Assembly (NCBI GenBank): GCA_016936595.1
Contig: JAFGXO010000011.1
Coordinates: 1-57,019 of the forward strand
Length of the DNA stretch: 57,019 nt
DNA from: Bacteroidales bacterium
GTDB taxonomy: Bacteria > Bacteroidota > Bacteroidia > Bacteroidales > JAFGUD01
Reading direction: 5' to 3'
Position numbers and translations under genes: made by a program. The notes under the pieces were generated by a model. It had not been told where the DNA came from and searched no databases. It was given only the letters and a program-made list of their open reading frames with translations. Below are positions 24,865 to 57,019 of the stretch, in pieces. How positions within the stretch are numbered: position 1 is the first letter of the stretch; the number at the start of each line of letters is the position of its first letter.

Positions 24865-24867
24865 CAC

Positions 24868-31550: not shown

Positions 31551-31576
31551 TTTTTAGTTTTTTTTTTGAATAAAAA

Positions 31577-31603
31577 GTATGCTACCGAAAAACGGCAGCA
31601 TAC
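31577..31603 (-). terminator. Terminator-like hairpin between the two smaller T9SS genes
   Basis: GTATGCTGCCG-loop-CGGTAGCATAC followed by TTTTTATT on the minus strand. Confidence 0.7.
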
Positions 31604-31633
31604 AAACATAACCTAAACCTAATCTTATATTTC

Positions 31634-42900: not shown

Positions 42901-44619
42901 TGTTGTTACAATTATAGTGTGGTTTCCTGCAGAACTTAAATCGGCTGTTGTGGTAAAATCGTACAAATAGGTGTCAAAACGAGGGATAGGTCCGGGCACA
43001 ATTTCGTTAATAATTGCACCACCGTCAATTTGAATAGAAATAGGCATATTGTAAATTGGACGGCAAGTGTTATTTTTCAATAAAACTTGCATTGGTTCAG
43101 TGTTATTAAAACTGCTACAAGTTTTTGAATGAGTTAAAGTTAAGGCAATAGGTTCAACATCATCAGCTTGAGTTTCAGAGATTTCAAAATTATCAAAGGC
43201 AAATTGATAATATCCATCATTTTGATAATAAGTTCTTCCTCTTATTCTAAATTTCACACAAGTTTCGCCCGAAAGATAGCATAAATCGTGCTGAACATGT
43301 GTCCATGTGTTTATGGGAGTAGAGTTATTTGCAGTCCACCAGTTTGTTGAGCCTTGATACCAATCAGGGTCTGCATTTGTTCCAAGTTGTGTCCAATTTG
43401 CACCATCATCTAAGGAATATTCAACATGAAAATAATCATAAGAAGAATGGTAAAGAGAATATTTTATATCCATTGATAATGTTGGGCTAGTGTTTTCGGA
43501 AAAGTCAAAAACCGGACTTTCTACCCAATAATAATCCCATTTGCCATTGTAGTATCTTTTAACTTCCGAAAACCAAGAGTTTCCTTGTCCGTCCGGACCG
43601 TTTAAGTATGGTAAATTACCCCACGAAAATTGTCGTCCGTTGTGAGTTGGAATTGCATTATTAGGTTGAGTAGGATTATCGCCGTATTCAAACCAGCCAT
43701 CACGTGAAGAATTAAAGTTGGCAAGATAAGGGTAAGTTTGAACATATTGTCTTCGTCCAACTTTAAAATTGTTGTTTGCCATGTATCCGTCGCCGGCAAG
43801 AGTTGCGGTAATATCAAAATGATAAATATCATCAGCCGACATATCAAGATTTGCAACAAATACATCAACAAAGCCATCAGCAGGAATGTTGATTCCCGAA
43901 CCGCTCCAAGAACCTGTTTGTCCGCCGGAAACATTTACTGTCCAACTAACATTTGTAACATCTTCGTTACTGTAATTAAAAAGCCTAATTGTAACATTTT
44001 CTGCATTAGAATAGGTTTGTCCGCAATTTAAATAAGCCGGACTAACAAGTTTAGGAACACCTACATCGTTTCCACTATAAACAACAATATCGTCAATGTA
44101 CCAATATTTTCCAACAGCACCGCTTTCATAGTATCTAAATCTAATCTTAACATCAGTTTGATTTGCAGCTATTGCCGAAATATCAACAATAGTTTTATTA
44201 GGAGTAGTTAGGCTTCCTACTGTAGTACCACTGTTATCTAAAAAAATTGTCCATGTAGTTCCGCCGTTTGTAGATACTTCAAAATATCCGTGTGTATTTT
44301 CAACAGCGTGCCAAAATTCGTAAAAACTAACTTTCACAGAAGTCATTCCAGAACAATCAAAAGAATTTGTTTGAATATAGGCTTCGTTAGGAGTAGTTCC
44401 GGCACCAAGGCTTTCGTCGTCAAAAACGGCATAAAACCCTCCGCTTGGGCTCGAAAATCCGGGATTATCTTTTATAACCCAGTTATATGAGCCTTGAAAT
44501 TTGTTTATTGTCCAACCCGTAGGAGTGGTACTTGAACTAAAAGTTTCTTTAAGAACAATATCTGCATTTGAAATGGATATATTGAAAACTAAAAAATAAA
44601 AAAGGATAATTTTTTTCAT
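33934..44619 (-). CDS. Giant T9SS-secreted multidomain adhesin/lectin-like protein (3561 aa)
   Basis: Signal peptide; N-terminal MAM-like domain; six (MAM/cleaved-adhesin-like plus CARDB-like) repeats; LamG; F5/8 type C; parallel beta-helix region; GWNLIGNPYPS region; CTD IFDITGK...QGIYNV...TKKFIL. Confidence 0.9.
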   Translation of the reverse strand: MKKIILFYFLVFNISISNADIVLKETFSSSTTPTGWTINKFQGSYNWVIKDNPGFSSPSGGFYAVFDDESLGAGTTPNEAYIQTNSFDCSGMTSVKVSFYEFWHAVENTHGYFEVSTNGGTTWTIFLDNSGTTVGSLTTPNKTIVDISAIAANQTDVKIRFRYYESGAVGKYWYIDDIVVYSGNDVGVPKLVSPAYLNCGQTYSNAENVTIRLFNYSNEDVTNVSWTVNVSGGQTGSWSGSGINIPADGFVDVFVANLDMSADDIYHFDITATLAGDGYMANNNFKVGRRQYVQTYPYLANFNSSRDGWFEYGDNPTQPNNAIPTHNGRQFSWGNLPYLNGPDGQGNSWFSEVKRYYNGKWDYYWVESPVFDFSENTSPTLSMDIKYSLYHSSYDYFHVEYSLDDGANWTQLGTNADPDWYQGSTNWWTANNSTPINTWTHVQHDLCYLSGETCVKFRIRGRTYYQNDGYYQFAFDNFEISETQADDVEPIALTLTHSKTCSSFNNTEPMQVLLKNNTCRPIYNMPISIQIDGGAIINEIVPGPIPRFDTYLYDFTTTADLSSAGNHTIIVTTNLPTDNNNTNDVLTETRINGIISTYPYLEDFNSGNGGWVSRTPVNHRYFRLQELPYLNGAQGEGNSWHTEITQNGKWDYYWVESPVFNLNGVSNPTLFLDVKYSLYHSSYNYVHVEYSTNGGSTWTQLGTSADPFWYNGSTNWWTANNTNPVDEWTTMQHSLCNIAALTPAEKSCVKFRIYARTYYLTDGYNQFAFDNFEITDQPEVGVSALLDPNANASGCLYSSNQTITIEVENFGCGDISDVPVECIITFPAGHPNAPSITLNGIVSTIPAQSSTSYTFTGTFDMTPMGLYNFEAYSQLIGDTHHNNDTVNVDISVDFPKINTFPYLEDFNSGDGYWTAGGDNPPDNNGRKFVHGTLPYLNGPEGEGDCWYTEITTNAKWDYYWVESPVFDFSQNTNPTLSMDIKYSLYHSSYNYVHVEYSLDGGSNWTQLGTNADPDWYQGSTNWWTANNTTPVNTWTHVEHDLCELSGEPCVKFRIKARTYYINVGYNEFAFDNFEISGGESDDAQPIQITLADGGNCSGYSNSENVQVLIINNKCRPLYNIPISIQIDGGAIINEIVPGPINRFDTYLYNFTTTADLSAPGTHTISVTTNLSTDGDNSNNNLTETRINTPINTFPYLADFNADNQGWVSRPDANHRYFRYGEPPYLNGAQGQGNSWYSEVKQNGKWDYYNVESPIFDFTTISNPILYFDVKYSLYHSSYDYVHVEYSTNGGTNWTQLGTSADPNWYSGSTNWWTNNNAAPIEDWTQMQHNLCMLAGQSCVQFRIRALTYYINEGYNQFAFDNFKIIDAQDVGVTKILDPTPDLAGCTFIDNQTVTVRVYNWSCTDATNVPVQCDVTGAATATLTGIVPTVPAQSYTDFTLTGSFDMTPVGTYNLNAYTIFVGDPNNSNDNTSSSIVVEYPKISSFPYIEDFNSGTGYWKAGGDSPNFPPDIETGRNFIHGTLPYLNGSDGEGDCWFTEVTTNAKWYYYWVESPVFDFSSLTEPSIFLDIKYSLYHSSYNYVNLEYSLDGGDTWIQLGTSADYNWYSGSTNWWTANNTNPLIEWTKMQHDVCFLAGEDCVKFRVKARTYYINEGYNQFAFDNFWIYDQITDAAVTEYVTPTEDQEHCTFIENQPVTVTVYNPFCSDLTSVPITCEITGAITQTLIGNVDIPAKTYVNYTFATNIDMRTLGTYYLKTFSSLLTDFNNQNDTIYQSITVNDTLISTFPYFENFNNPTTSKYWTSSGDNPPDNNGRKFVLGQFDYLEGNENNGQSWFTEVTTNGKWDYYWVESPVFDFTGLENPILSMDVKYHLYHTSYDYFHVEYSTNGGVSWLQLGTNSDPNWYSGSTNWWTNNLGNPVDEWTYVEHTLCNLKDETCVKFRIIGRTYYNNPYYYYFAFDNFTISDARIDAEITNLTGCYGQEYNLEVEIANRNNFCQLFDPCGFDGQTSLKFDGSNDMVTIGTLPAFTNFTVEYYVKHNGTDGTYDRITSVAGDRFETTKETNGQLRFYTPATGWRTTAVYLPVGEWTHVAWVSDGSSIKLYVNGENVYNYTANITIPSAEWNFGGKNNNTYSSNINLDEVKIWDIALSEAEIRNGICGSLTGTEPNLVAYYQMEENTGSYSVSDITGNGYNGSLTNMDVNSCWEVSDLAINNGGVATEPDILTSINISYIIDGGATVTNNYAVNIPAGSSDIVTISPITIPNGLDMSNNLAASGIASASSSYAGNSAAAAFDNNITTTGWANNNSLPSWLQVDLGAGNEQAVNAYRVYCSSTQTPGSWNNEQYNPGTWQFQGSNDGSSWTTLDSKVYGNILMNEWKVFTFDNTIPFRYFRINITNAEGSTNYIRITELQMFNVNPPTSELTVWIDSPNGEQDQITINDTIYADVANFPTCNDHCDAAIEIVDAVTNATSNSNATWDPLEDPNFSTTGCSGVTLENTAWYYFTTNCRGGEVSVTFQNIVCSPGGTGIQIAITRLDAEPACDPANHTEVFCAYPGDESDIVWNPLDLYPDTQYYITIDGVSGNTCDFQILLEGNVAFNPIVAMSGDFTIEPSEVNYPSIQAAVDSLEMYGVSGPVHFDVADVPFNEQIQIGTICGVSDVNTITFETWCDDCGQAILEHDADATNNYTLRLYRTSYITFKNFSFNALGNTNGRVIEIAENNHYINFENCTFNGVQTSDNSDNYALIYEFETLTNSSDFNFYNCVFNNGSYGLNLFGKNATQNISGLSLSHNAFNNQSFSGIFLTNVNTPVIINNSIVSISNRTDYRGISLTTCNNESIISQNNVVALQANGYGLFLDNVLGTAGNKALVINNMFSIGNGSGTSYGINIENATGNSGYIDIFFNSSNVLSTNGAGININTADFLSIKNNNFVSASANSFNAAVLTNSTENYNNFMPDFTGKGANSITINPMYLSVDNLHTENAGLQAGDNTTGISTDFDGETRQYPPYIGADEYLGSVIWTGNTNTDWNTVTNWQPNTYISNATNVIIPTTPVGGNFPETNSNIDNLAETKNLTIQTGSHLYIAPNKYLTVWGIMNQNGTFIIQSDATGTGSFINKSTVNYGIETTTVQRYISPLMWHYVSSPITSASVNLFHPNNFYFYDETIEDSWNMQNFSGGLMGWIFPASGSNMNIMQGYITYQNQATVEFTGELNTGEITYNLSYTDNTATHGNSIFDGWNLIGNPYPSTLNWYDNNNITKTNIDGAIYFYIDDGSGAYNNYSYFLPESYTNPYPSVVLNRVSGCIPLSQSFFVKANSPGASITVNNSARIHNDVPFYKSNFEEPNQLRLTAYNNQYTDETILRFIPEATENYDGQLDAIKLVGYSVNVPYLFSLSDDSINLSINSLPEIDTNSILNLGFKTGTAGQFSITMNDFILPDSITPYLIDLQNNTETDLTKNNTYDFYSNIGTYRNRFKIIFKHQTNSNNNTNVINSNILIYSNKMNLFVNFIDIPEPNTTITIFDITGKKIKDINPKNKNNVYELNYLAQGIYNVIIIQNQKIFTKKFILFKN
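38735..43748 (-). repeat. Six intragenic repeats with a period of about 870-920 bp
   Basis: ACCGGACTTTC(A/T)ACCCA (WVESPV) recurs near 43510, 42644, 41726, 39962 and 39071, with a variant near 40860. Confidence 0.9.
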
Positions 44620-44711: not shown

Positions 44712-46604
44712 TTATCTAAAGGATTCCATTTCTTTTTTGAAAAAAGCAGGAGTTACTCCGGTGTTTTTTTTGAATACGGAGTAGAAAGATGATCTGCTTT
44801 TAAATCCAACTAAGTCGGCAATAGCGTCTAGGGTTAAGTTTTTGTGTTTTGGAGAAATGAGCAGTTTTTGAGCTTCGTCAATTCTAAAGTCGTTAATGTA
44901 TGTATTGAAATTTTTATTGTATTCGTAATTTATAAATTTGGACAAATAAAGTTTGTTTGTATTAAGTATTTTGCTCATTTTATCTAAAGTAATGTCCGGG
45001 TCTAAAAATATTTTTTCTTGAATAAGTTTTTCAACGCCTGTTTTTAAAATTTCAAGTTGTTCCGGTTTTAGCCCAATATCTTCTGCTTGTTTTTCGTAAT
45101 TTTTATCAATAATTTCTTTTTTAATTTCAAATTCTTCTTTTATATCATTTTTGTGTTTTTTTTCCACGATTTGAATGTTTTTTTCCACAAGCATTTTGTA
45201 CGATTTATTTAATTTGCGATAAAAAACTGCTGCAATTGTTACAAGTAAAACAAACACAGAAAAAGCTATTTCAAAAAACAGCAGTAATTTTTTTTGGCGT
45301 TGAATTTCGAGTTGGTTTAGTTGGAGTTTTTTGTCTTTTTTTTCAGTTTCATAATTCAGTTTTAACTGATTTATTTTAAGACTATTTTCGATATTGTACA
45401 GGCTGTCTTTTAAACTTGTATATTTTATATGAAAAGAATATGCTTTATTGTAATCTTTTTCAGCAAAAAATAAATCGGAAAGTGCTAAATAGTTTTCTTT
45501 TTCTAATTCTTTATACCCGGTTTTTTTAGCAAATTCTATGCTTTTATAAAAACTATCTTTAGCTTTTGTAATATCTTTAATACTAATGTATAACTTACCG
45601 AAAAGATGGTATGTTGCTGATAAATAAGTTATTAGTTGATATTGTTCAAATATTTCTTTTGCTTGATTTAATAAATCGGAAGCTTCTATGAGGTTGTTTT
45701 GTTTTATAAAAATTTCGGCAATATTTGTTTGGGCTACAGCATACATAATTTCATCATTTAAATCATATGATAATTTTGAGGATTTTTTAAAATAATACAG
45801 AGCTGAGTCTAAATTTTCTAAGTTTGTATAGATGTTACCAATATTGTTATAAACTGTAGCTAATCCTTTATGATTATTTAAATTTTGATATATTTTTCTT
45901 GCTTGATTGTAATATAAAAGTGAGTTGTAAAAGTCTCCGTCTGTTGCATACGTCATTGCAATGTTATTTTTTGAAGATGCTTGAGCTTCGGCGTAATTCA
46001 TGCTTTCTGCTAATTTAAGTTCAATTAAAAAATAATCAATAGCTTTTGCATAATTGGATTTCATGTAGTAGGTCATACCTAATCGTTCATAAGATCCAAT
46101 TATTGATACTGTGTCGTCTAATTTTATATAAATATTCAATGCTTTATTGAATAAACTCTCGGCAAGTTCGTAGTTTTCAGTAAAATAATGAAGCCTTCCT
46201 TTCATAAAACAAATTCTTCCTTCTATTTTTGGAGAATTTGTTTTTCTTATTTCATAGTATGCCGAATCTAAATATAGAAGAGCTGTATCAATTTTATTTT
46301 CTGTTTCAAATGTTGATGAAATTATGATGTAAAAACTACTTGATTTTTCGCTAATGTTGTTTTTTTTTGATAACTTTAATCCTTTATTTGCGTAAGTTCT
46401 TGCAAGTTTAAGGTTTTTTTCAGAGTAATAATTAGATATTTTTGCGTAAAGTTCTATTTTTTCAGGAGTATCTGCGATATTTAACAAATTTATTAAGCTG
46501 TCAACGTTTTCACTAAATGATAATTTTGAAAATCCAATGATTATTAATAAAATTATAAAAAATTTATATTTTAAAAAAGATATGTTTTTTGAAATATTTA
46601 TCAT
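44712..46604 (-). CDS. Membrane-spanning TPR-repeat sensor with C-terminal AraC HTH
   Basis: N-terminal signal/TM, multiple TPRs (YNNIGNIY, NNIAMTY), TM LLLFFEIAFSVFVLLVTIAAVFY, AraC motifs FLDPDITL...YLSKFIN...FNTYINDFRI...VGFKSRSSFYSVFKKNTGVTP. Confidence 0.92.
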   Translation of the reverse strand: MINISKNISFLKYKFFIILLIIIGFSKLSFSENVDSLINLLNIADTPEKIELYAKISNYYSEKNLKLARTYANKGLKLSKKNNISEKSSSFYIIISSTFETENKIDTALLYLDSAYYEIRKTNSPKIEGRICFMKGRLHYFTENYELAESLFNKALNIYIKLDDTVSIIGSYERLGMTYYMKSNYAKAIDYFLIELKLAESMNYAEAQASSKNNIAMTYATDGDFYNSLLYYNQARKIYQNLNNHKGLATVYNNIGNIYTNLENLDSALYYFKKSSKLSYDLNDEIMYAVAQTNIAEIFIKQNNLIEASDLLNQAKEIFEQYQLITYLSATYHLFGKLYISIKDITKAKDSFYKSIEFAKKTGYKELEKENYLALSDLFFAEKDYNKAYSFHIKYTSLKDSLYNIENSLKINQLKLNYETEKKDKKLQLNQLEIQRQKKLLLFFEIAFSVFVLLVTIAAVFYRKLNKSYKMLVEKNIQIVEKKHKNDIKEEFEIKKEIIDKNYEKQAEDIGLKPEQLEILKTGVEKLIQEKIFLDPDITLDKMSKILNTNKLYLSKFINYEYNKNFNTYINDFRIDEAQKLLISPKHKNLTLDAIADLVGFKSRSSFYSVFKKNTGVTPAFFKKEMESFR

Positions 46605-46758: not shown

Positions 46759-47178
46759 ATGTTGAAATATATCATTTTAATTTTTATAGTATTTTCTGCT
46801 TTTTTAGCTGAATCTCAGACTGATACAATATCATATATTAAAACAATTAATGGTTATCAATTTGTGTATCAAGATCAAGAGTTGTCCCTTTTTAAGTTGA
46901 GTAAAATTGTTAAAACTTGCCAAGACGCAAAAAAAGAGATGAATAAAGCCGAATTTATTTGGCTTAGTTCATATCTTTTTAGTTACACGGGGGGGTACAT
47001 TGTTGGTTATATTTTAGGCGGAGCTTTATTTGGTGCTGACATCAATTATGAGCTTTTGGCAATTGGAGGAGGGCTTGTACTTGTTTCAATTCCTTTAAAT
47101 TTGGCAATTTCAAAGCATACCTTACTTGCAGTGCAAATTTTTAATAAAAATTCTAATTACACCCATTTTTATGATTAA
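46759..47178 (+). CDS. Hypothetical exported/membrane protein
   Basis: Signal peptide plus Gly-rich hydrophobic hairpin. Confidence 0.65.
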   Translation: MLKYIILIFIVFSAFLAESQTDTISYIKTINGYQFVYQDQELSLFKLSKIVKTCQDAKKEMNKAEFIWLSSYLFSYTGGYIVGYILGGALFGADINYELLAIGGGLVLVSIPLNLAISKHTLLAVQIFNKNSNYTHFYD

Positions 47179-47193
47179 TTTATAATTTAAAGT

Positions 47194-47703
47194 ATGAAAT
47201 ATTTTATTGTTTTGATTTTTTCTTTTTTATTAGCTTGTCAAAAAGACACCTGCAACGAAAGTTTAGGTTCCACTTTTATGAATGTTCAGCTGGATAGTTT
47301 AAAAATTGATATAAATAATGATGTAGATATCAAGCTTAAATTAAGCACTTTAGATGCTTTACCTTTAAATTATTTTACCGATTTTAATTTAATTTTATCT
47401 GATAATAATCCGCAGGGCTACTGGTGGCATAATGCTGCTCCTGCTATTGATACGATTTTTGTGAATAATGAAAAAATTCAATTCACAATATTAAATGATT
47501 CTTTACCGATAATTGGAACATCATTAAAATATGATTTTCATTTAGTATTTCCTGATCGAAGAAATTATATTTCGTGCGAACATTTAGGTTCTTCAGATTG
47601 TTATTATTTGGATTTTAGCTTTGTTTTAAAAAAAGTTGACACCTTAAATTATCAAATATCCGACTTTTATTGGGACGAAACACTTAATAAAGGTGGTTTT
47701 TGA
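47194..47703 (+). CDS. Hypothetical lipoprotein
   Basis: Lipobox LLAC followed by QKD; no family recognised. Confidence 0.65.
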   Translation: MKYFIVLIFSFLLACQKDTCNESLGSTFMNVQLDSLKIDINNDVDIKLKLSTLDALPLNYFTDFNLILSDNNPQGYWWHNAAPAIDTIFVNNEKIQFTILNDSLPIIGTSLKYDFHLVFPDRRNYISCEHLGSSDCYYLDFSFVLKKVDTLNYQISDFYWDETLNKGGF

Positions 47704-47710
47704 TTTTATA

Positions 47711-49777
47711 TTAGTCTTTTTTAGTGTTAGTGTTTTTTTCAATTTTTTGCAAATAGTTGTAAACAGCAATTTGAGCTCTAATTTTTTCTTTTCCTTGAGT
47801 ATTATTTTTATTTGAAAGATTGTTGTCTAAAATTCTGGCAGCAACATTGTCTTTTTTATGAATATCAAATATATCTAAGATGATTTTTTGAATATTAGGA
47901 TCAAAAATTGGGAATGTAGCTTCAACTCTGCGGTCAATATTTCTAACCATAAGGTCTGCTGAACTTAGAAAAATTTTTGGTTTTTGGGCGTTTCCAAAAA
48001 TAAGCATTCTTGTGTGTTCTAAAAAACGATCAATTATTCCGTAAGCTTCAATTTTATCTGTTTTATCTTTAATGCCGGTAATTAACGAAAACATTCCTCG
48101 TATTAATAAAATTACTTCTACGCCATTTTGAGATGCTTCGCTCAACAAATCGATTATTTCGCGGTCGTCAAAATTATTAATTTTAATATGAATATATGCT
48201 TTTTCTCCGGCTTTTGCATTTTCAATTTCTTGTTTGATAAGTTTTTTAATTTGTGTTCTAAAATTAAATGGTGATACTAAAAGATGATTAAACACAAAAT
48301 GTTTATAATTATTTTTTATAAATTCAAACATTTTTTGCACATCAAGAATTATTTTAGGATTGGCTGTTAAGATTGTAATATCTGTGTAAAGTTTTGCTGT
48401 TGTTTCGTTGTAGTTTCCGGTTCCAACTGCGGCAAAGCGTTCGTAATTGTCTCCAATTTTTTTGGTGATTAAAGTTAGTTTTGAGTGAACTTTTAAACCA
48501 GGTACTCCATGTATTACTTTAACTCCTCCTTCAGTTAATTTTTTGCTCCACGAAATATTTTCTTTTTCGTCAAATCTGGCTTGTAATTCGATAACAGCTG
48601 TAACATATTTTCCGTTTTGAACGGCACTAAGCAGAGCCGAAATAATATCTGAATTTTTGCTCAATCTGTACAATGTAATTTTAATTGAAACAACGTCTTT
48701 ATCAATCGCTGCTTCTTTAATAAAATTAACAAAATAATTAAAAGAATGATACGGGTAATGTAAAAATATATCTTGTTTTTTTACAACATCAAAGTAGCTT
48801 ATTCTTTTTTCAAGTGCTTTAATTTTTATAGGCTCTATTTTTTTATATATTGCTTCTTCTCCTAAAACGTTCGGAAATTTAAGGAAATCTTTGGTGTTAT
48901 GGTATCTTGTTCCGGAAATTAGGGTATCCATATTGCCTATTTTGAACATTTTTACTAAATAATCTAATATGTCTTGTTCAATGTTTCTATCATAAACTAA
49001 TCTTACAGGTAGTCCTTTTTTTCTGCGTTTAAGGCTTTTATCTAATAATTCTAAATACGACGATGAAATATCGTCTTTTATGTCAAGTTCTGCGTCTTTA
49101 GTTAATTTGAACGCATAGGCTTTTATTTTTTCAACATCTAAAAAATAAAATAATTCTTTTAGTCCTAATCTAACAATATCATCTAAATACATTATTCTTG
49201 TAACTTTTTCGTCTTTATGAAGAATAATAAATCTGTCAAATTTATTTGTTGGTAATTGCATTAGTGCAAAAATCGGTTTTTCTTCATTGTTGATAATCAA
49301 TTTGAGGGCAAAATAAATATTGTCGTCAACTAAATCGGGGCTGCGTTTTTTCCCTCTCAAAATTATTGGGAGTAGTGATCCTTTTAATGATTCGCAAAAA
49401 AATGTTTTTGCATATTTATAATCTCTATCTGATAGTTCATTTTCGTCAACTATCTCAATATTATTCTTTTTAAGTTCTTGTTTTATTAGTTGATGTGCTT
49501 CTTCGTAGGATTTATTTTGTTCTCTTACAATTCTGTTTATTTCCTTTAAAGTTTCTACGGGGCTATGTCCTACAATTTTTTTTGCTTTGCTTTTAAGTTT
49601 GGTTAATCGTTTTAATGTGGCTACTCTAACTCTGTAAAATTCGTCCATATTATTTGAATAAATTCCTAAAAATTTTACGCGTTCGTGTAAGGGAACTTCT
49701 TCATTTAAAGCTTGTTGTAAAACTCTTTCGCTAAATGAGAGCCAGCTAATTTCTTTAGGGCGGTAAATTGTTGCCAT
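47711..49777 (-). CDS. ppk1: Polyphosphate kinase 1
   Basis: EISWLSFSERVL, SNNMDEFYRVRVA, LHYPYHSF, ELQARFDE, LKVHSK, GTGNYNE, DRFLEH, SADLMVRNIDRRVE. Confidence 0.97.
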   Translation of the reverse strand: MATIYRPKEISWLSFSERVLQQALNEEVPLHERVKFLGIYSNNMDEFYRVRVATLKRLTKLKSKAKKIVGHSPVETLKEINRIVREQNKSYEEAHQLIKQELKKNNIEIVDENELSDRDYKYAKTFFCESLKGSLLPIILRGKKRSPDLVDDNIYFALKLIINNEEKPIFALMQLPTNKFDRFIILHKDEKVTRIMYLDDIVRLGLKELFYFLDVEKIKAYAFKLTKDAELDIKDDISSSYLELLDKSLKRRKKGLPVRLVYDRNIEQDILDYLVKMFKIGNMDTLISGTRYHNTKDFLKFPNVLGEEAIYKKIEPIKIKALEKRISYFDVVKKQDIFLHYPYHSFNYFVNFIKEAAIDKDVVSIKITLYRLSKNSDIISALLSAVQNGKYVTAVIELQARFDEKENISWSKKLTEGGVKVIHGVPGLKVHSKLTLITKKIGDNYERFAAVGTGNYNETTAKLYTDITILTANPKIILDVQKMFEFIKNNYKHFVFNHLLVSPFNFRTQIKKLIKQEIENAKAGEKAYIHIKINNFDDREIIDLLSEASQNGVEVILLIRGMFSLITGIKDKTDKIEAYGIIDRFLEHTRMLIFGNAQKPKIFLSSADLMVRNIDRRVEATFPIFDPNIQKIILDIFDIHKKDNVAARILDNNLSNKNNTQGKEKIRAQIAVYNYLQKIEKNTNTKKD

Positions 49778-49851: not shown

Positions 49852-50877
49852 TTATTGTTGCAAAATTTTAGATACCGCATCTACCCATTTGTCATTATCA
49901 TTTAAACTTTTTACCATCACAAATTTTTTGCCACCATTTTTTATAAAAATTTCTTTGTATTCTAAATTAAGTTCTATGTTTGTTTCTAAACAATCTGCAA
50001 CAAATGATGGTGCAATAATCAAAATTTTTTTAATATTGTTCTGTGCATAGTTTTTTATTACTTCATCGGTAAACGGACTCAGCCAACCTTCTGATAATCT
50101 TGATTGAAAAGTTGTTATTGTTTTTGAGGGTGTTATTCCTGTTTTTTGTAATAGTAATCGTGTTGTTTGATAACAAGTTGCTTTATAACAATGAGTTCCA
50201 TGTTCAGGCATTTTTGTTTCGCAAGTACAAGATTGATAATTTATATCTGCATGTGTTTTATTGATTTGACGTATTGGTAAACCATGATACGAAAAAATAA
50301 TCTTGTCAAAATCTTCTGGTTTATATTTTTTTATTTGATCAGAAAACGAATCTATAAAAGCTTCGTGTGAATAATATTGATTGATAAAACGAATTGAAGG
50401 AATTATTTCCCATGTTTTAGTTTGTTTCATTACAAGATCAAAAATTGAACCTGTTGTTGATGATGCATATTGAGGGAAAAGTGGAAAAATTATTAATTCC
50501 TCAAAATTTTGCTGTTTTATTTTAGATAATATTGTTTTAAGTTCAGGTTTTCCGTATCTCATAGCACCAAAAACAACATATTCTGGTTCTAATTTTTTTT
50601 GAAGTTTTTCTGCTAAATTGTTCAGATAAATTAGTAATGGAGAACCTTCGGGTGTCCAAAGTTTTTTGTATATTTTTGTAGATTTGGGTGTTCTAAAAGG
50701 TACAATAATTAAATTTACAAGTAATTTTCTTGCAATCCAGGGTAAGTCTATTACTCGTTTGTCGTTTAAAAAATTAAACAAATATTTTCTAACATGCTTT
50801 TTTGTAGCACTTTCAGGGGTTCCCAGATTTACAACTAATAATATCTTTTTAATATGTTTGTTGCTTGTATCAATCAT
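49852..50877 (-). CDS. hemH: Ferrochelatase
   Basis: LVVNLGTP, FLNDKRVID, GSPL, AMRYGKP, PLFPQYASSTTGS, FSYHGLP, FQSR, WLSPFTD, FVADCLET. Confidence 0.96.
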   Translation of the reverse strand: MIDTSNKHIKKILLVVNLGTPESATKKHVRKYLFNFLNDKRVIDLPWIARKLLVNLIIVPFRTPKSTKIYKKLWTPEGSPLLIYLNNLAEKLQKKLEPEYVVFGAMRYGKPELKTILSKIKQQNFEELIIFPLFPQYASSTTGSIFDLVMKQTKTWEIIPSIRFINQYYSHEAFIDSFSDQIKKYKPEDFDKIIFSYHGLPIRQINKTHADINYQSCTCETKMPEHGTHCYKATCYQTTRLLLQKTGITPSKTITTFQSRLSEGWLSPFTDEVIKNYAQNNIKKILIIAPSFVADCLETNIELNLEYKEIFIKNGGKKFVMVKSLNDNDKWVDAVSKILQQ

Positions 50878-50933
50878 TTATTTGGAGTATTTTTATTATA
50901 CTTATGCAATAAAAATTATCAATGTGGGTTTTA

Positions 50934-52298
50934 TTAAATTATTGAGTTTGCGATGTCAACAGCTTGTTTTACTCGGTCTGCCATACCAATACCATTTCTG
51001 ATATTTCCGGCAAGTAGTAATCCTTCGTGTTGTTTTTCCAACTGGCTTATTAGTTCAAATCTTTTTTTTGATTTTTCATCGTATTGGGGTATAGCATGTT
51101 GATATTTATAAATATTTATAAAATCCGGCTGAATATTATCTAAATTTAAAGTTGAATTTATCTCTTCAATTGCAATTTGTTTTATCTCATTATCTGATTT
51201 TTCAAATAAATCGGGTCTTTTTATTCCTCCCATAAATACCGATAATATTACTCCTTTTTCGGGGGTTCTATTTTTAAAAATTGATGAAGGAAATAGTATT
51301 CCCAGTACATTTCTTTTTTCGACTGTAGGAACTAAACCTCCAAAAGCAGGTAATCCAATTCCTTTCCAGTTTTTATAACCTGCAACGGTTAAAATAACTT
51401 TTGCATATTCTAAATTTGTAATTGGTTCAAGAGTTTTTTTGTCGATAAATGATAGAATTTCCGGCAGTGCATAAGCTCCAACTGTTGTAATAATTTTTTT
51501 TGATATTATGTTAATATTGTGGTCTTTATGTTCAAATATTGTGTTAAATGAATTGTTTGATTTTTCTATTGTAACATTATTACAATTTTTATAGATGTTT
51601 TTTTGTTCGATGTTTTTTTCGAGAGCCGAAATTAAATTTTTAAGTCCTCCTTTTGTCGAAAAAACTTCTTTTGTTGCACGTTTTTCGAGTTGGGTTTTTG
51701 GTAGTTTTGCTTTTTTTATCGAACCTTTAATAAAACTCCCGTAATTTTGTTCAAGATTGTACAATTTTGGCAAAGCAAATTTTGTAACAAGTTTATTTGG
51801 ATCACCTGCATAAATGCCCGAAATAAAAGGGTCAACTGCGTAATCAAGAAAACTTTTTCCCATTCTTCTTTTCACAAGTTCAGCAACAGTTTCATTCGGA
51901 TTTGTGCCTTTTTTTCTGAAAGGTTCGCCTAAAATTTTAAGTTTATCTTTAAAAGAAAAAAGTGGAGTTTTAATTGCCGAAAAAGCACCTGATGGAAGAG
52001 CATTCCATTTTCCTTTTTTTAAAATCCAACGTTGTTTTGAGGCTTTATTGGCTGTTTCAAGTTCGCAATCGTTTTTTAAATCGTCAAAAAGTTGAACTAA
52101 TTCAGGGTTTGATAATACCCCTGTATTCGGACCTGTTTCGTAAATAAATCCGTCATGCTCGTGGGTTTGTATAACGCCGCCAACTATGTCATTTTTTTCA
52201 ATAATTAAAACATTTTTTCCTGCTTTTTTTAAATAAAAGGCTAATGTTAAGCCTGTTAGTCCGGCTCCAATTATTATTATATCTGTTTTTATTGTCAT
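50934..52298 (-). CDS. hemG: FAD-dependent protoporphyrinogen oxidase (HemY-type)
   Basis: IIGAGLTGL dinucleotide motif, ETGPNT, PFISGIYAGDP, AIPQY, GIGMADRV; ATG 52298 lies 4 bp after the hemN stop. Confidence 0.92.
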   Translation of the reverse strand: MTIKTDIIIIGAGLTGLTLAFYLKKAGKNVLIIEKNDIVGGVIQTHEHDGFIYETGPNTGVLSNPELVQLFDDLKNDCELETANKASKQRWILKKGKWNALPSGAFSAIKTPLFSFKDKLKILGEPFRKKGTNPNETVAELVKRRMGKSFLDYAVDPFISGIYAGDPNKLVTKFALPKLYNLEQNYGSFIKGSIKKAKLPKTQLEKRATKEVFSTKGGLKNLISALEKNIEQKNIYKNCNNVTIEKSNNSFNTIFEHKDHNINIISKKIITTVGAYALPEILSFIDKKTLEPITNLEYAKVILTVAGYKNWKGIGLPAFGGLVPTVEKRNVLGILFPSSIFKNRTPEKGVILSVFMGGIKRPDLFEKSDNEIKQIAIEEINSTLNLDNIQPDFINIYKYQHAIPQYDEKSKKRFELISQLEKQHEGLLLAGNIRNGIGMADRVKQAVDIANSII

Positions 52299-52302
52299 TT
52301 TT

Positions 52303-53676
52303 TTATACTGATTTTGAATATTTGTTGTTTTCAAAAGAATAATTAGGGTCAAGCGAAGCAGCAATATTGCGAATAAAAAAAGCTCCTTTTTCTGTGATTT
52401 CTATTTTTTCTTGGCTAAAAGTCAATAGTTCATCATTTTTAAATTCGTTCAACTCTTTAATATTCAGGCTTATATTTTGTTTTATTTCGTCAACGCTTAT
52501 GTTTATTTTATTAGATAATAGATTAAAATCTAATTTTAAATTGCACATAAGTTCGGTAATTGCTTCGCCTGTAATTCTCTGATTTTTAGATAAAAGCATT
52601 CCTTTTTCTATTGGTAAAATATCATTGTTTATTTTTTGTATATAATCGTTTGTTTCTTTTGTGTTTTGAAAATATCCACCCGAAATTTGGCTGATTGCCG
52701 AAACTCCAAAAGCATAAACCTGTCCGGTTGTTTGACGGGAACAATATCCCTGGAAGTTTCTATGTAACATATTGTTTTTCAGTGCAGTATATAGTTCGTC
52801 GTTTTCTAAAACGTAATGATCAAAACCAATAGGCTTGTAACCTTCTTTTTTTAATATTTTGTTTGCGGCAAAAAACATTTCTGTTTTTTCGTCAGCATTT
52901 GGCATGCCTAATTTTTCAAGAATTTGCTGATGTTTTTTTATCCACGGAACGTGAGCATAGGAAAAAGTAACCAATCTGTCGGGTCTTATTTTTGCTGCTT
53001 TTTCTATTGTTTCGCTAAAATTTTCAACATTTTGACCGGGCAAACCGTAAATAAAATCTAAATTTACCGAAATATTATCTTTTCGTATAAAATCAACAAT
53101 TTCGTGTACAGGAATTATAGATGGTTTTCTGTTTACTTTTTTCAAAACTTCGGTGTTAAAATCCTGAATACCAACACTAAATCTGTTAAATCCTGCTTTT
53201 TTTAGTTTGTCAATATATTTAAAATCTAAATACCCCGGGTGTACTTCAATTGCAATTTCCGGTTTATCAATGAACTGAAATTCGTCAAAAAAAAGTTGAT
53301 TTATTTCGGCTAAAATTTCGGCATCAATAGCATTTGGTGTTCCGCCTCCGTAGTGAATTTGCGATACTAATCTTTTTTTGTCAATGTGCTTAATTACACT
53401 TTTAATTTCTTTTTTTAAAGCGTCAATATATGGCTTAACTTTTAAACCTTTTCCTATATTACATGCATTGCAGCCGCAGTAGAAGCATATTTTATGACAA
53501 AAAGGAATATGCACATAAAATGCAATTAATTTTGGATTTTTATAGTTAGAGTTTTGTATGTTCTCAAGGTATTCTTTTTTAGTTATATCATCTGAAAAAT
53601 GATTTGCCGGCGGATAACTTGTATATCGTGGTACCGGTTTATTGTATTTTTTAATTATTTTTTTATCTATTTCCAT
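52303..53676 (-). CDS. hemN: Oxygen-independent coproporphyrinogen III oxidase (radical SAM)
   Basis: KYNKPVPRYTSYPP N-terminus, YVHIPFCHKICFYCGC, GGGTP, DFIYGLPGQ, YAHVPW, LHRNFQGY, which fit true HemN rather than HemW. Confidence 0.93.
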   Translation of the reverse strand: MEIDKKIIKKYNKPVPRYTSYPPANHFSDDITKKEYLENIQNSNYKNPKLIAFYVHIPFCHKICFYCGCNACNIGKGLKVKPYIDALKKEIKSVIKHIDKKRLVSQIHYGGGTPNAIDAEILAEINQLFFDEFQFIDKPEIAIEVHPGYLDFKYIDKLKKAGFNRFSVGIQDFNTEVLKKVNRKPSIIPVHEIVDFIRKDNISVNLDFIYGLPGQNVENFSETIEKAAKIRPDRLVTFSYAHVPWIKKHQQILEKLGMPNADEKTEMFFAANKILKKEGYKPIGFDHYVLENDELYTALKNNMLHRNFQGYCSRQTTGQVYAFGVSAISQISGGYFQNTKETNDYIQKINNDILPIEKGMLLSKNQRITGEAITELMCNLKLDFNLLSNKINISVDEIKQNISLNIKELNEFKNDELLTFSQEKIEITEKGAFFIRNIAASLDPNYSFENNKYSKSV

Positions 53677-54877
53677 TTCTAATTTTTTTATTTAAATAAA
53701 TTGAAAAAATTACTATTACTAAGGTTATTACAACAAGAATAGCCTCGTATTTAAATAGTCCATTATAGCCAATTTTATCTCCAATTTTTCCGCTAAAAAT
53801 TGCAATAATCATACTACTTAAGTGAGTAATAACAATTTGAAGTGTAAAATCGGTTCCTTCTCGGTTATTTCTTACAATTTCCATTGATTTTGTGTAAATT
53901 GCTACTGTTGCAAAACCGTAACTACCCCATAATAAGCCAATTCCAATATAAATTTGAGCTAATGTTGGCGTAGAATTTGTAATATATACAAAATACAAAA
54001 CAGCAGCCAAGCTAATAAACAAAAAGCTTATAAGAGCTTTATTTACTGATATTTTTTTTACGACATAACCTGCTAATAATGAGGAAATTACGGCTATCGC
54101 CGTCCCTACAATACCCGACATAAATCCAATTTGTTTTACATCATAGCCAAGATCAACAAGATAGGGCTTTAACATAGCTAAAACGCCTATTATTCCGGAA
54201 TAGTAGAAGATTAAAACCGGAAGGTGTAATATGGTTTTTTTGTTTGTGAAAAATGTAAAGATGTCGGTAAATTTAACCGATTTAGTGTTGTTTTTTTCTA
54301 ATTTTTTTTCATCTTTATACAAAAAAAGCGGAATAATTGCAATTAAAACAAATGCAGCTAACAAAAACAGTAATACCGACCATCCAAAATAAAAATAAGC
54401 AATTAATAAAACCCCTGTTCCAAGCAATGAACCAACAAAACTTCCGGCACTTTGCATGCTGTTTCCATAAGCTCGTTCGCTTTTTTTAAGATTTAATATT
54501 GCAAAGGCATCGGTGGCAATATCCTGAGTAGCAGATGCGATAAACGCAACAACCATTAAAATAACAATTAATTTAAAATCGGTTTTTAAACTAAATAATC
54601 CGATGCTAATTATTACAAAAGCATAAAATAATTCAGATAATATTATCCAACGTTTTAAATCTTTATTGTTTTGTGAGGTTTTATCAACCATTGGTGCCCA
54701 TAAAAATTTTAGTATCCACGGAAGTTTTACTAATTGAAGCATTCCAATTGCTTCAAGTGAATATTTTTCCTGACGCATAATTACAGGCACTACCGTTGAA
54801 AAAAAACTCATTGGTACTGATTGTGCAATGTATAAGCTAAAAAGAACAGGATATTTTTGCCATAAATTATTTTTCAC
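53663..54877 (-). CDS. MFS permease of the AmpG/RhtX/FptX/YbtX family
   Basis: LYIAQSVP, LPWILKFLWAPMVD, SATQDIATDA, EGTDFTLQ; about 12 TMs; GTG start. Confidence 0.85.
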   Translation of the reverse strand: MKNNLWQKYPVLFSLYIAQSVPMSFFSTVVPVIMRQEKYSLEAIGMLQLVKLPWILKFLWAPMVDKTSQNNKDLKRWIILSELFYAFVIISIGLFSLKTDFKLIVILMVVAFIASATQDIATDAFAILNLKKSERAYGNSMQSAGSFVGSLLGTGVLLIAYFYFGWSVLLFLLAAFVLIAIIPLFLYKDEKKLEKNNTKSVKFTDIFTFFTNKKTILHLPVLIFYYSGIIGVLAMLKPYLVDLGYDVKQIGFMSGIVGTAIAVISSLLAGYVVKKISVNKALISFLFISLAAVLYFVYITNSTPTLAQIYIGIGLLWGSYGFATVAIYTKSMEIVRNNREGTDFTLQIVITHLSSMIIAIFSGKIGDKIGYNGLFKYEAILVVITLVIVIFSIYLNKKIRNGNR

Positions 54878-54880
54878 ATC

Positions 54881-56950
54881 TTAAAATTTTACGGATAAAC
54901 TTGCTCCAAATTGTAGCGGTTTTCCTATTTGCACATATTTATTTCCGAGTGCTTCAAAATAAAATGAATTATATGTTTGATTTAAAAGATTTTTACCCCA
55001 CAAATCAAATTGAAAAATATTTTTTATAAAAGATATTTTTGCATCAACAAGATTATAATATTTTTGATAGCTTGTATTTTCTTCGTTCCAATACAAGTCT
55101 CCAATTCCTTTATAAACCAAACTAAAATTTATTTTATTGATAAATAAATTATTTAACACAATAGTTTTATTTAATTGTATCGAAACTGTATTTTGGGGAA
55201 CGTAAGGAATAAAATTACCATTGTAATTAGTTAAACTATCAACAACGTTAGAAATAAATGTTGCATGTGTATATCCATAATTAACAGCAACTTGCAAGTT
55301 TCTTTTGGGTATAAATTGAATCGAAAATTCGCTTCCTTTGCTAACCGAATGGCCGGCATTTTTGAGCATTGAGCCTTGTCCGCTTGGAACAGTTTGGTAA
55401 ATTTGCTGATTTCTCCAATCAATGTAAAACAGAGCAATATCAACATAAAGTTTTTGGTTTATCAACGACGATTTTACACCTGCTTCATAGTTCCAACTGT
55501 ATTCCGGGTCAAAAGTTAAATCTTCGGGGCGTTCAAATGTAGAGTTAAAACCACCTGTTTTGTATCCTTTTGCAATAGTTGCATAAACAGAAGTATTTGT
55601 AAATGAATAGCTTATTGAAAATTTTGGCAAAACTTGCAAATAGTCTAAAGCAGGGTAAAGTGTATCAGCTTTGTTTATAATGTTACCAGCGGCCATTTCA
55701 ATATCATACTCGTAGTCTAATAAATTTTGTTCATAATCAAATCTAATACCGGCAGTTAAAACAATATTTCCAATTTTAAAAGTTGATTGATGAAAAGCCG
55801 CAACACCATAAATAGATGATAGATAATTTTTATATAGAGTCATATTAGAAGGGAAAACAGTAACATCAACTGATTTGTCAAACATCTGTGCAAAGCTATA
55901 AGCTCCTAATATCCAATTATATGCTTTTTTGCTTTTTGATCGAGTAATAATTTCCTGCGAAATCATGTTCTGTTTTTGAGTTTGTTTAACTAAATATAAT
56001 GAAGCATCTGTAAAATCTTGGTCAATATTTTGTTCGTCGCCTATAAATTGATAAGACGAAGTAGAAACAATTTCAAAATTATTTGAAGAATATTTTAAAA
56101 TAAAAGCATCAGAAAATAAATTACGATTGTATCCGCTATACTCATTATAGCTAATATCGTTTGCTGTTTGAGTAGAGTCATTAAAAACTGCGTATGGATA
56201 CCCTCCTTGATCACTTTTTTCAAAACTTGCAATGTTTTCAACCGAAAATTTGTCGGATATTTTCCAAATAAGTCTGTTTCGAACCCCAAATGAAGATAAA
56301 ACATCAATTTTTGTGTTGTTAAAATTATTTGTAAAAAAACCGTCGTTATGTTTGTAGTTTAGGGCTAAAGAATACCCAATTTTATTGGAAATAAGTCCGT
56401 AATTAGCAATATTTGCATTATAGCTTCCATAACTGCCGGCAGATAAATTTATATTAGTTCCTTGAAAATATAAAGGCGAAATAGTAACAATGTTTATTAT
56501 ACCACCCATAGTGTTTCGTCCGAATAAAGTTCCTTGAGGACCTCTAAGTACTTCTATTTGTTTTATTTCGAAAAAATCGAAAGCAAATGCAGCTTTTTCA
56601 AAGTAGGGAACATTGTCAACATACAAGCCAACAGAGGGGGAATTAATACGCGAGCCTATACCTCGGATATATACCGGAGAAGTAAGCTTAGAGCCATAAT
56701 CCGGCATAAAAAAATTTGGTGCAGTTGAAGAAATATCACTTAAAGTTGTAATTTGATTTTGCTGAATATTTTTAGTTGTAAGTATAGAAACCGAAGCCGG
56801 TAATTCCTTGTATTTTAATTGATTTTTTGAAGACTGAATAACAATTTCATCAAATTTAATTTCAGAAATTGTATCTTGTTTTTGAGCAATCAAATTTGAA
56901 AAAAGCACAAAAACAAAAAATAAAGCGATTATTATTTTTTTATAATACAT
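54881..56950 (-). CDS. TonB-dependent outer membrane receptor (FyuA-like, no SusC hallmarks)
   Basis: Signal peptide, DEIVIQS TonB box, YIRGIGS, IEVLRGPQGTLFGRNTMGGIIN plug motif, KGYKTGGFN, C-terminal SVKF; ATG 56950 preferred. Confidence 0.92.
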   Translation of the reverse strand: MYYKKIIIALFFVFVLFSNLIAQKQDTISEIKFDEIVIQSSKNQLKYKELPASVSILTTKNIQQNQITTLSDISSTAPNFFMPDYGSKLTSPVYIRGIGSRINSPSVGLYVDNVPYFEKAAFAFDFFEIKQIEVLRGPQGTLFGRNTMGGIINIVTISPLYFQGTNINLSAGSYGSYNANIANYGLISNKIGYSLALNYKHNDGFFTNNFNNTKIDVLSSFGVRNRLIWKISDKFSVENIASFEKSDQGGYPYAVFNDSTQTANDISYNEYSGYNRNLFSDAFILKYSSNNFEIVSTSSYQFIGDEQNIDQDFTDASLYLVKQTQKQNMISQEIITRSKSKKAYNWILGAYSFAQMFDKSVDVTVFPSNMTLYKNYLSSIYGVAAFHQSTFKIGNIVLTAGIRFDYEQNLLDYEYDIEMAAGNIINKADTLYPALDYLQVLPKFSISYSFTNTSVYATIAKGYKTGGFNSTFERPEDLTFDPEYSWNYEAGVKSSLINQKLYVDIALFYIDWRNQQIYQTVPSGQGSMLKNAGHSVSKGSEFSIQFIPKRNLQVAVNYGYTHATFISNVVDSLTNYNGNFIPYVPQNTVSIQLNKTIVLNNLFINKINFSLVYKGIGDLYWNEENTSYQKYYNLVDAKISFIKNIFQFDLWGKNLLNQTYNSFYFEALGNKYVQIGKPLQFGASLSVKF

Positions 56951-57019
56951 TAGTTTTTTTTTAGAAGTTTGAAAAAAATAATTGTTCAAAATTTCTATCG
57001 GTAAAATTGAACTTTGAAA

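Follow-up and report, generated by a model that had tools for sequence, protein, structure and literature searches.

What function joins a pair of transporter genes to the last three enzymes of haem synthesis? The question is raised by a contig of a freshwater Bacteroidales bacterium, analysed here as one window that is the whole contig (57,019 nt). The gene row that it carries is probably a haem-precursor salvage operon with its entry point at coproporphyrin(ogen) III. The features are as follows.

56951..57019, minus strand: partial spacer upstream of the TBDR gene, 69 nt of sequence to the contig end
54881..56950, minus strand: TBDR, a TonB-dependent outer-membrane receptor, leading gene of the five that the window contains, 689 aa from ATG 56950
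53663..54877, minus strand: MFS inner-membrane permease of the RhtX/FptX/AmpG branch, 404 aa, GTG start
52303..53676, minus strand: HemN, oxygen-independent (radical SAM) coproporphyrinogen III oxidase/dehydrogenase, 457 aa
50934..52298, minus strand: HemY-type FAD-dependent protoporphyrinogen oxidase, 454 aa from ATG 52298
49852..50877, minus strand: HemH ferrochelatase, 341 aa, closing the module

The original prediction described five co-oriented, tightly packed genes, and both points are borne out: all five lie on the minus strand at the positions given, with gaps of 3 nt (TBDR-MFS), -14 nt (MFS-HemN, an overlap), 4 nt (HemN-HemY), and 56 nt (HemY-HemH). A longer TTG open reading frame, reaching to 56989, is probably not the start of the TBDR, since a signal-peptide-like N-terminus follows ATG 56950. 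The contig ends 69 nt upstream of the receptor start, and the promoter and a sixth conserved gene therefore lie outside the window. This sixth gene, the first of the operon, is a small membrane ORF of 115 aa; a profile built from related sequences placed it (E 1.9e-12) at the beginning of a different contig from this genome (G000:C149:16-363, minus strand). Promoter and terminator scans with consensus sequences return chance-level matches only, and the RNA-library match is one 160-nt contig on the HemY gene.

The three enzymes exceed their curated cut-offs and appear to fit the protoporphyrin-dependent branch. HemN scores 453.9 bits on the equivalog TIGR00538 (cut-off 324.95) versus 144.2 bits on the HemW model TIGR00539, below its cut-off of 205.4. 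It resembles E. coli HemN (1olt, E 1.4e-89) over its full length (residues 4-443), and it carries the radical-SAM motif CxxxCxxC as CHKICFYC at residues 60-67 and a HemN_C domain (PF06969, 29 bits). The oxidase, labelled "HemG(Y)" in the original prediction, is of the FAD-dependent HemY type and not the flavodoxin-like HemG. It reaches 275.4 bits on TIGR00562 (PgoX; cut-off 97.85) and shows the dinucleotide-binding (FAD, GxGxxG) motif IIIIGAGLTGL at its N-terminus after ATG 52298. Its best solved relatives are the tobacco (1sez, 1.1e-47) and Myxococcus (2ivd, 1.1e-46) PPOs; the B. subtilis enzyme 3i6d follows behind these at 4.3e-38, a ranking that conveys likeness and not whether protoporphyrinogen IX is preferred to coproporphyrinogen III (PgoX versus CgoX). 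HemH matches PF00762 with 310 bits (positions 4-314 of 317) and TIGR00109 with 241.9 bits (cut-off 124.6), and only 37 bits are attained on the Firmicute-type model NF009095. Among solved structures it comes closest to human/mitochondrial protoporphyrin ferrochelatases (E 5e-23).

The receptor is a member of the TonB-dependent receptor superfamily, with a signal-peptide-like N-terminus, a Plug (PF07715, 67.4 bits), and then a 22-strand-type barrel (PF00593, 97 bits), both domains over their cut-offs. Its best solved relative is the FyuA/pesticin receptor 4epa (E 6e-27, residues 63-681). The siderophore-receptor model TIGR01783 and the haem-receptor model TIGR01785 give 123.5 and 57.8 bits, below cut-offs of 223.5 and 316.85, respectively. 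The permease matches PF07690 with 98 bits, and its orthologues align from residue 1. Its best NCBIfam match is RhtX/FptX TIGR02718, where 173.2 bits against a cut-off of 356.15 mark it, on profile score, as a relative and not a member of that siderophore transporter family; it nonetheless displays the family trait of a gene placed beside a TonB-dependent receptor. The AmpG muropeptide permease model TIGR00901 gives 152.6 bits (cut-off 350 not reached), and AmpG 8zgz is the best solved relative (E 1.3e-22). Homologues at E<=1e-20 number 2814 among 8000 scored and are named only "MFS transporter". The two transporters thus resemble metallophore or muropeptide importers most, with every family cut-off missed, and the labels "FyuA-like" and "FptX/YbtX-like" hold as descriptions of best matches but not as family assignments.

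Pairs of a TBDR with an RhtX/FptX-type permease are two-membrane importers of small chelators. In FptA-FptX (pyochelin), FyuA-YbtX (yersiniabactin), and RhtA-RhtX (rhizobactin), a TBDR gene likewise stands beside an MFS gene of this branch. Unlike those systems, the pair described here falls below the family cut-offs (123.5 versus 223.5; 173 versus 356), has genes for haem enzymes and not for siderophore synthesis as its neighbours, is found in genomes that lack early haem genes, and has a metal-free tetrapyrrole as its presumed cargo.

The adjacency of the five genes is not due to chance, since their order recurs in 103/103 related loci examined, as far as contigs reach. Among the 80 best related loci, counting evaluable loci only, linkage to the MFS gene and its row amounts to 67/67 for the TBDR, 73/73 for HemN, 61/61 for HemY, and 56/57 for HemH; the gene row is unchanged in a further 23. 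It is kept across 41 genera while the flanking genes vary. The five-gene linkage, whose conservation the original prediction named as a check, is thus conserved across Bacteroidales, as salvage predicts. The transporters are invariably paired with HemN and HemY, and the ferrochelatase gene varies: 17 of the 56 genomes with the MFS gene have no ferrochelatase gene in the locus or genome, and there the transporters still accompany HemN-HemY. No reductase gene is conserved in the cluster for the putative reduction step raised in the original prediction, and the scanned neighbours included no siderophore-synthesis genes.

The host appears unable to begin the pathway. In its MAG, which is 85% complete, hemA, hemL, hemB, hemC, and hemE were not found, nor were ChdC and HmuY; a HemD-like gene was detected. 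This outcome of the gene search named in the original prediction is the one expected under salvage. A haem consumer is present in the form of cytochrome bd (CydA, E 3.4e-164). Two further genomes of the genus that were searched both lack MFS, hemB, hemE, and HemH, which indicates that the trait is patchy.

Across 401 Bacteroidales genomes from 236 genera, strong MFS orthologues occur in 56 genomes and 41 genera, with none in 30 genomes from other orders of the class. The permease is strongly and negatively associated with the early pathway: 53/56 carriers, described as near-complete genomes, lack hemE and 49/56 lack hemB, and the 102 HemH-positive genomes divide into 53 with hemE and no MFS, 37 with MFS and no hemE, 2 with both, and 10 with neither. 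Complete genomes agree with the trend, as in one single-contig, 100% complete genome (G031) that has the cluster and lacks hemB and hemE. A complete de novo pathway together with non-conserved linkage, which would count against salvage, is not what these genomes display, 53 of the 56 being without hemE. Conserved linkage and the early genes missing from the host MAG support the uptake-and-finish reading. Three of the 56 genomes (G122, G352, and G374) also have hemB and hemE, and the module is therefore not confined to auxotrophs. Moreover, in a prototroph (G097, locus L121) a DUF4491-HemN-HemY row that lacks the MFS gene includes a TBDR of 35% identity, so a link between TBDR and haem genes is possible without auxotrophy.

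In the proposed mechanism, the TBDR would bring a free tetrapyrrole from other organisms across the outer membrane, and the permease would pass it into the cytoplasm. HemN would then convert coproporphyrinogen III to protoporphyrinogen IX, the HemY-type oxidase would yield protoporphyrin IX, and HemH would insert iron to give protohaem for use by haem proteins, cytochrome bd among them. The position of entry is suggested by two features: (i) HemN and HemY are invariant and the MFS and HemN genes overlap while the ferrochelatase is variable, which points to a cargo that feeds HemN and not the chelatase, and (ii) four genomes (G019, G057, G069, and G367) carry the cluster, make porphobilinogen (hemB) and have hemC but not hemE, so that only the step yielding coproporphyrinogen III is missing and entry at coproporphyrin(ogen) III is indicated. 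Coproporphyrinogen III itself is the likeliest cargo, with coproporphyrin III as the other candidate; the former should be lasting enough in the anoxic waters and sediments that carriers inhabit. A point against this reading is that air destabilises coproporphyrinogen while O2 is the usual oxidant of HemY-type enzymes, two requirements that conflict.

Other explanations deserve weighing. The transporters may import an iron chelate or metallophore that gives ferrochelatase its metal, with porphyrin reaching HemN via an unlinked route. Metallophore importers are the best matches of both proteins (FyuA 4epa, E 6e-27; TIGR02718, 173 bits), the prototroph described above holds a related TBDR in its late-haem row without the MFS gene, and a single-type DUF4491 gene stands beside FeoAB at another locus (L126), an example of linkage between iron and haem genes in Bacteroidales. 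An iron importer is nevertheless improbable: the transporters accompany HemN-HemY in the 17 genomes without any ferrochelatase gene too, and such an importer would not explain the near-exclusion of MFS and hemE in HemH-positive genomes (2 with both versus 37 and 53). The neighbours scanned show no siderophore synthesis, and 49/56 genomes would still need a second importer for porphyrin. That the neighbourhood is merely conserved, with transport and haem enzymes functionally uncoupled, is very improbable: co-transcription is presumed and the promoter and terminator scans stay at chance level, but the row persists across 41 genera despite varying flanks, its start and stop codons overlap or lie 3-4 nt apart, and its negative association with the early pathway is strong.

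A somewhat less remote alternative, though still an unlikely one, is that the cargo is some other tetrapyrrole or one from further along the pathway (protoporphyrin IX, haem, a metal-coproporphyrin, or a different porphyrin), with HemN and HemY acting non-canonically or HemN serving as a HemW-like haem chaperone. The stable extracellular forms are oxidised porphyrins; coproporphyrin III is reported to be secreted and to bind zinc (PMC6104308), and a paper on P. gingivalis cautions that certain Bacteroidota proteins named "HemN" lie nearer to HemW (PMC13096392). The HemN encoded here, however, scores 453.9 bits on its own equivalog against 144 on TIGR00539 and aligns with E. coli HemN at full length. 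Import of protoporphyrin or haem needs neither HemN nor HemY, yet these are kept in 73/73 and 61/61 loci, and the four genomes in which hemE is the only gene missing point to entry before HemN.

Salvage from coproporphyrin(ogen) III, the preferred reading, has parallels elsewhere. Trypanosomatids such as Leishmania follow the same logic: an early-pathway auxotroph keeps the last three haem enzymes and is able to finish host- or neighbour-derived coproporphyrinogen. They differ in being eukaryotes, in the oxygen dependence of their enzymes, and in the lack of a dedicated, linked importer. In BtuB-dependent cobinamide salvage, a cell that cannot start the pathway takes up an incomplete tetrapyrrole, which a TonB-dependent receptor likewise feeds into the last steps; the cofactor, the enzymes, and the inner-membrane class (ABC there, MFS here) differ. 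Porphyromonas gingivalis is similarly a member of the Bacteroidota without hemA-hemE that keeps the last steps (HemN-HemG-HemH, with Hus/Hmu uptake). Its HemH is reported to be functional (PMC13096392), and a review that proposes the uptake and finishing of coproporphyrinogen III or PPIX calls this "a theoretical hypothesis" (PMC12094164). In contrast to P. gingivalis, the operon has a HemY-type oxidase in place of HemG, a FyuA-like TBDR and MFS permease in place of a hemophore system, and importer genes physically joined to the enzymes, and its carriers are environmental Bacteroidales.

A literature search turned up no paper describing this operon. Genome surveys count Bacteroidales that have less than half of the pathway among the haem auxotrophs (PMC11139205), and in reviews precursor uptake by Bacteroidota figures as an untested idea (PMC12094164). 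The operon provides named candidate transporters for such uptake in 56/401 sampled Bacteroidales genomes. It also implies porphyrinogen exchange within anoxic communities and predicts a defined growth factor (coproporphyrinogen or coproporphyrin III) whose supply could aid the cultivation of as yet uncultured Bacteroidales from sediment and freshwater.

The variability of the final gene touches on a long-standing gap, namely HemH-free haem synthesis in Bacteroides and Prevotella, which are reported to form haem from iron and protoporphyrin IX via "an unidentified ferrochelatase" (PMC6460266). In the absence of HemH, its place is taken by DUF4491 genes, which occur in 1/102 HemH-positive genomes versus 22/25 HemH-negative genomes with other haem genes. 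This replacement makes DUF4491 a candidate for the missing Bacteroides ferrochelatase. A broader and tentative proposal, for which the odds are somewhat less than even, is that the operon is a dedicated coproporphyrinogen III importer-finisher, that many environmental "haem auxotroph" Bacteroidales are in fact precursor auxotrophs living on leaked porphyrinogens, and that DUF4491 is the non-HemH ferrochelatase of Bacteroides/Prevotella or an obligatory part of it. DUF4491 proteins are three-helix membrane proteins of ~95 aa that occur as pairs or fusions.

Five co-oriented genes, as in the original prediction, occupy positions 49852-56950 of the window, all on the minus strand. Beginning with the receptor, the row comprises:

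54881-56950, minus strand, TonB-dependent receptor (TBDR) with plug and barrel domains
53663-54877, minus strand, MFS permease with RhtX/FptX and AmpG as its best NCBIfam models
52303-53676, minus strand, HemN (453.9 bits, cut-off 324.95)
50934-52298, minus strand, HemY-type FAD protoporphyrinogen oxidase (proto_IX_ox, 275.4 bits, cut-off 97.85)
49852-50877, minus strand, HemH (hemH, 241.9 bits, cut-off 124.6)

The enzyme identities are based on Pfam and NCBIfam profiles with curated cut-offs. The receptor likely starts at ATG 56950, directly followed by a signal-peptide-like stretch, and the oxidase likely at ATG 52298, with a GxGxxG motif five residues on. Recomputed from these starts, the spacings from TBDR through MFS, HemN, and HemY to HemH are 3, −14, 4, and 56 nt and match those first given. 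The window makes up contig C163 in full, and this stops 69 nt upstream of the TBDR start. No RNA run was among the public runs listed as matching the window, and of four runs compared directly, a single 160-nt contig of one RNA library matches HemY, not enough to demonstrate transcription.

HemN aligns over its full length with 1olt, the E. coli HemN, and its CxxxCxxC motif is intact. The oxidase resembles the protoporphyrinogen oxidases of plants and Myxococcus more closely than the one from B. subtilis, and the nearest relatives of HemH are protoporphyrin ferrochelatases. Judged from sequence, the three enzymes appear to be an ordinary protoporphyrin-dependent trio. A coproporphyrin-dependent pathway was rejected for the window's genome (85% complete), in which no ChdC was found and HemH is not of the Firmicute type. 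The best solved relative of the receptor is FyuA (E 6e-27), in keeping with its earlier label as FyuA-like, while YncD/PqqU and BtuB, the next solved relatives, match over the plug only. The permease had been called FptX-like; RhtX/FptX is indeed its top NCBIfam model (173 bits, with AmpG at 153 bits), but both scores fall below the family cut-offs, and its best solved relative is AmpG.

The row is conserved as a unit. When one genome per species was searched with seven aligned MFS orthologues, 599 stretches matched, and 534 of them encode a relative; the related contigs are labelled Bacteroidales and are mostly from uncultured MAGs (Paludibacter, Salinivirgaceae, Marinilabiliales, and the like). 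Among the best 80 of these 534 relatives, and for each gene within the loci where the contig extends far enough to judge, the permease has the receptor before it in 67 of 67 loci and HemN after it in 73 of 73, while 61 of 61 contain HemY. HemH was found by tblastn in 53 of 57 evaluable loci and in 56 of 57 after the exceptions were rechecked; the five-gene linkage is kept across Bacteroidales. Three of these exceptions (loci L084, L085, and L099) carry a divergent ferrochelatase between HemN and HemY (254-257 bits to PF00762 in the two that were scanned), the MFS of L084 being identical to that of L085, and L083 is the sole evaluable locus without HemH. The genes flanking the row vary between loci, which marks the row itself as the conserved unit. 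PPK1 (47711-49777, downstream) was considered as a further member and ruled out because downstream genes differ among loci. Thirty genomes from other orders of the class yielded no strong orthologue of the MFS (best E 2e-18, 29% identity).

The window's own genome is a MAG of 3.34 Mb in 241 contigs, with a completeness of 85%, a contamination of 1%, and a G+C content of about 30%; of the public runs, a freshwater metagenome matches the window's DNA best and may be its source. The genome search suggested with the original prediction found none of the early genes it named except a HemD-like one. Profile searches of this 85% complete genome did not detect hemE (PF01208), hemB (PF00490), or hemC (PF01379), and the best matches to hemA (TIGR01035, 23.7 bits against a cut-off of 209) and hemL (TIGR00713, 201 bits against 527) stay below the cut-offs. 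ChdC and HmuY were likewise not found in it. A passage of the P. gingivalis HemH paper (PMC13096392) reports a HemD-like gene in all Bacteroidota analysed there. A haem consumer is encoded, namely cytochrome bd subunit I (E 3.4e-164). Since the MAG is incomplete, relatives provide the stronger evidence on the missing early pathway.

Across 401 evenly sampled Bacteroidales genomes, the window's own among them, a strong MFS orthologue occurs in 56 (41 of 236 genera), hemB in 74, hemE in 64, and HemH in 102; since kin are not independent, no weight is placed on a Fisher value for the association. Several one-contig genomes carry the row, such as G031, G260, and G116, the last of which also has DUF4491. 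Among the 56 MFS genomes, 53 lack hemE and 49 lack hemB. The 102 HemH-positive genomes divide into 53 with hemE and no MFS, 37 with MFS and no hemE, 2 with both, and 10 with neither, and this near-exclusion of MFS and hemE recurs in many families. Four carriers (genomes G019, G057, G069, and G367) have hemB and hemC and lack hemE; they can make early tetrapyrrole intermediates and are unable to make coproporphyrinogen III. Of all the evidence, this points most specifically to the step at which an imported compound would come in. Several cases argue against a strict link with auxotrophy: three genomes (G122, G352, and G374) carry the cluster plus hemB and hemE, two genomes of the window's genus lack MFS, hemB, hemE, and HemH altogether, and the prototroph G097, in which both hemB and hemE occur, encodes a receptor with 35% identity to that of the window (L121:1519-3642) without an MFS, in a row ordered DUF4491-DUF4491-TBDR-HemN-HemY.

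Pairs of a TBDR and an RhtX/FptX-type MFS import small chelators across both membranes, and the pair in the window is for this reason read as a putative importer. Its cargo would feed HemN, given that HemN and HemY never part from the transporters, that the MFS and HemN genes overlap, and that the ferrochelatase slot varies. The row would be a variant of two known kinds of system, siderophore-type importer pairs and cofactor-precursor salvage. No conserved reductase gene occurs in the row across the related loci compared, and, most simply, the porphyrinogen would be imported directly in its reduced form in anoxic habitats. An oxidase of the O2-dependent type also stands beside the O2-independent HemN in prototrophic relatives (L120-L123), for which reason this combination appears to be the normal pair of the lineage. 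After the genome, conservation, and co-occurrence checks, the originally proposed salvage of coproporphyrin(ogen) III, completed to haem by HemN, HemY, and HemH, is the best-supported explanation and a rather probable one, with the ligand a candidate. A full-text literature search found no description of the five-gene operon. The nearest statement, in a passage of PMC12094164, is that P. gingivalis might import coproporphyrinogen III or PPIX via Hus for HemN-HemG-HemH, which its authors call “theoretical”. A word search of a 2026 review of haem biosynthesis (PMC13564367) returned no word starting with Bacteroid, Porphyromonas, salvage, or scaveng.

The HemH slot varies. Seventeen of the 56 MFS genomes lack PF00762 and have loci of the form TBDR-MFS-HemN-HemY. 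In seven such loci, a DUF4491 (PF14898) tandem pair or natural two-domain fusion lies at the edge of the row, and in L104 it directly follows HemY, in the slot otherwise held by HemH. These genes, all outside the window and beside HemN-HemY, are:

L104:13236-13838, DUF4491
L105:12839-13457, DUF4491
L109:1251-1861, DUF4491
L110:6919-7579, DUF4491
L113:5791-6413, DUF4491
L115:13054-13646, DUF4491
L119:12146-12753, DUF4491

DUF4491 is encoded in 16 of the 17 HemH-negative MFS genomes and in six of eight genomes with hemE and no HemH, adjoining HemN-HemY in four of the latter (L120-L123). It was not found in the window's own genome, exceeds the cut-off in one (G116) of the 38 other genomes with MFS and HemH, and is absent from all 53 genomes with hemE and HemH and from all 10 HemH genomes without MFS and hemE; one more of the 38, G043, shows a remnant of 43 residues immediately upstream of the cluster. 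Overall, DUF4491 occurs in 1 of 102 HemH-positive genomes versus 22 of 25 that lack HemH and have other haem genes; of the sampled genomes with none of these haem genes, 8 of 27 encode it. Three genera (g9, g145, and g132) each have one species of either kind, and on the MFS tree the label requires at least five changes, two of them forced by well-supported branches. A Bacteroides thetaiotaomicron control genome has DUF4491 and no HemH, and none of 30 genomes of other orders has DUF4491.

In a passage of PMC6460266, Rocha and colleagues describe how Bacteroides and Prevotella, which lack HemH, turn protoporphyrin IX and iron into haem by an unidentified ferrochelatase. This, together with a distribution opposite to that of HemH, makes DUF4491 a candidate, on purely distributional grounds, for the ferrochelatase of Bacteroides and Prevotella or an obligatory part of the activity. 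The protein has about 95 aa and is confidently modelled by AF2 as a helical membrane unit (pLDDT 95). Its Glu-Tyr, Trp, Glu, Gln, and Arg-Val residues are invariant, and one subtype has a His-Pro motif. Foldseek found nothing in the PDB at E<=0.001; since the weak top rows (best 0.9) are three-helix transporter units, the model leaves a possible transport role as a live alternative to ferrochelatase function. The Atlas returned DUF4491 clusters only, NCBIfam holds no DUF4491 model, and no paper naming DUF4491 was found in the full-text search. A fused gene for the ferrous-iron transporter FeoAB is directly followed, in the same orientation, by a single-copy DUF4491 gene at L126:5995-9087.

A sixth gene probably precedes the row. 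A small co-oriented ORF of 96-140 aa (e.g., L035:7412-7792) lies upstream of the TBDR in 28 of the 34 loci with enough upstream sequence. It is replaced in five, all Paludibacter-labelled (L056:6943-7707, L060, L072, L075, and L098), by a gene for a NigD1/NigD2-family lipoprotein, possibly a partner that binds the receptor at the surface; in the remaining locus (L024) the nearest upstream ORF is an iron-only hydrogenase gene. The small ORFs have no Pfam family or NCBIfam model. They begin with an N-terminal hydrophobic membrane helix, vary in the middle (mean column identity 23%), and end with FSRPPP a few residues before the stop, a build that we take to resemble membrane-targeted or membrane-inserted ribosome-arrest peptides, as a candidate likeness. 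Their profile finds one copy in the window's own genome, at the start of contig C149 (16-363, minus strand) and reading towards the contig end, with a divergent DUF349 gene upstream. This position fits C149 adjoining the end of the window, and it is therefore most probably with the small ORF that the operon begins.

Between the small ORF and the TBDR, the spacer measures 16-435 nt in 68 of 69 pairs, the other pair overlapping by 3 nt, and no common hairpin was seen among 14 folded spacers. Upstream of the small ORF, 58 loci gave no clear operator motif, with TAnnTTTG-like promoter strings only, by eye. Rfam at gathering score returned tRNAs and a group II intron only in seven full loci, with no RNA element before the TBDR. 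Between 47000 and 57019, predicted sigma-70 promoters (48 versus 52.7 expected) and terminators (6 versus 4.9 expected) are at chance level in scans ill-suited to Bacteroidota.

Elsewhere in the window, adjacent ORFs of 139 and 169 aa (46759-47703, plus strand), with no Pfam or NCBIfam family found, lie between a TPR-AraC regulator (44712-46604) and PPK1. On the other side of this regulator, a giant 3561-aa ORF (33934-44619, minus strand) encodes Reelin-subrepeat, Laminin_G_3, and F5/8 type C domains, and is also flanked by two proteins with T9SS tails (Por_Secre_tail; 29703-33769). At 20150-25704 (plus strand), the gene of an Nramp metal transporter runs into the start of an ORF of 1095 aa, whose only match is a weak one to MFS at its N-terminus, and a pterin-binding (DHPS-like) gene follows 3 nt on, making up an unusual trio.
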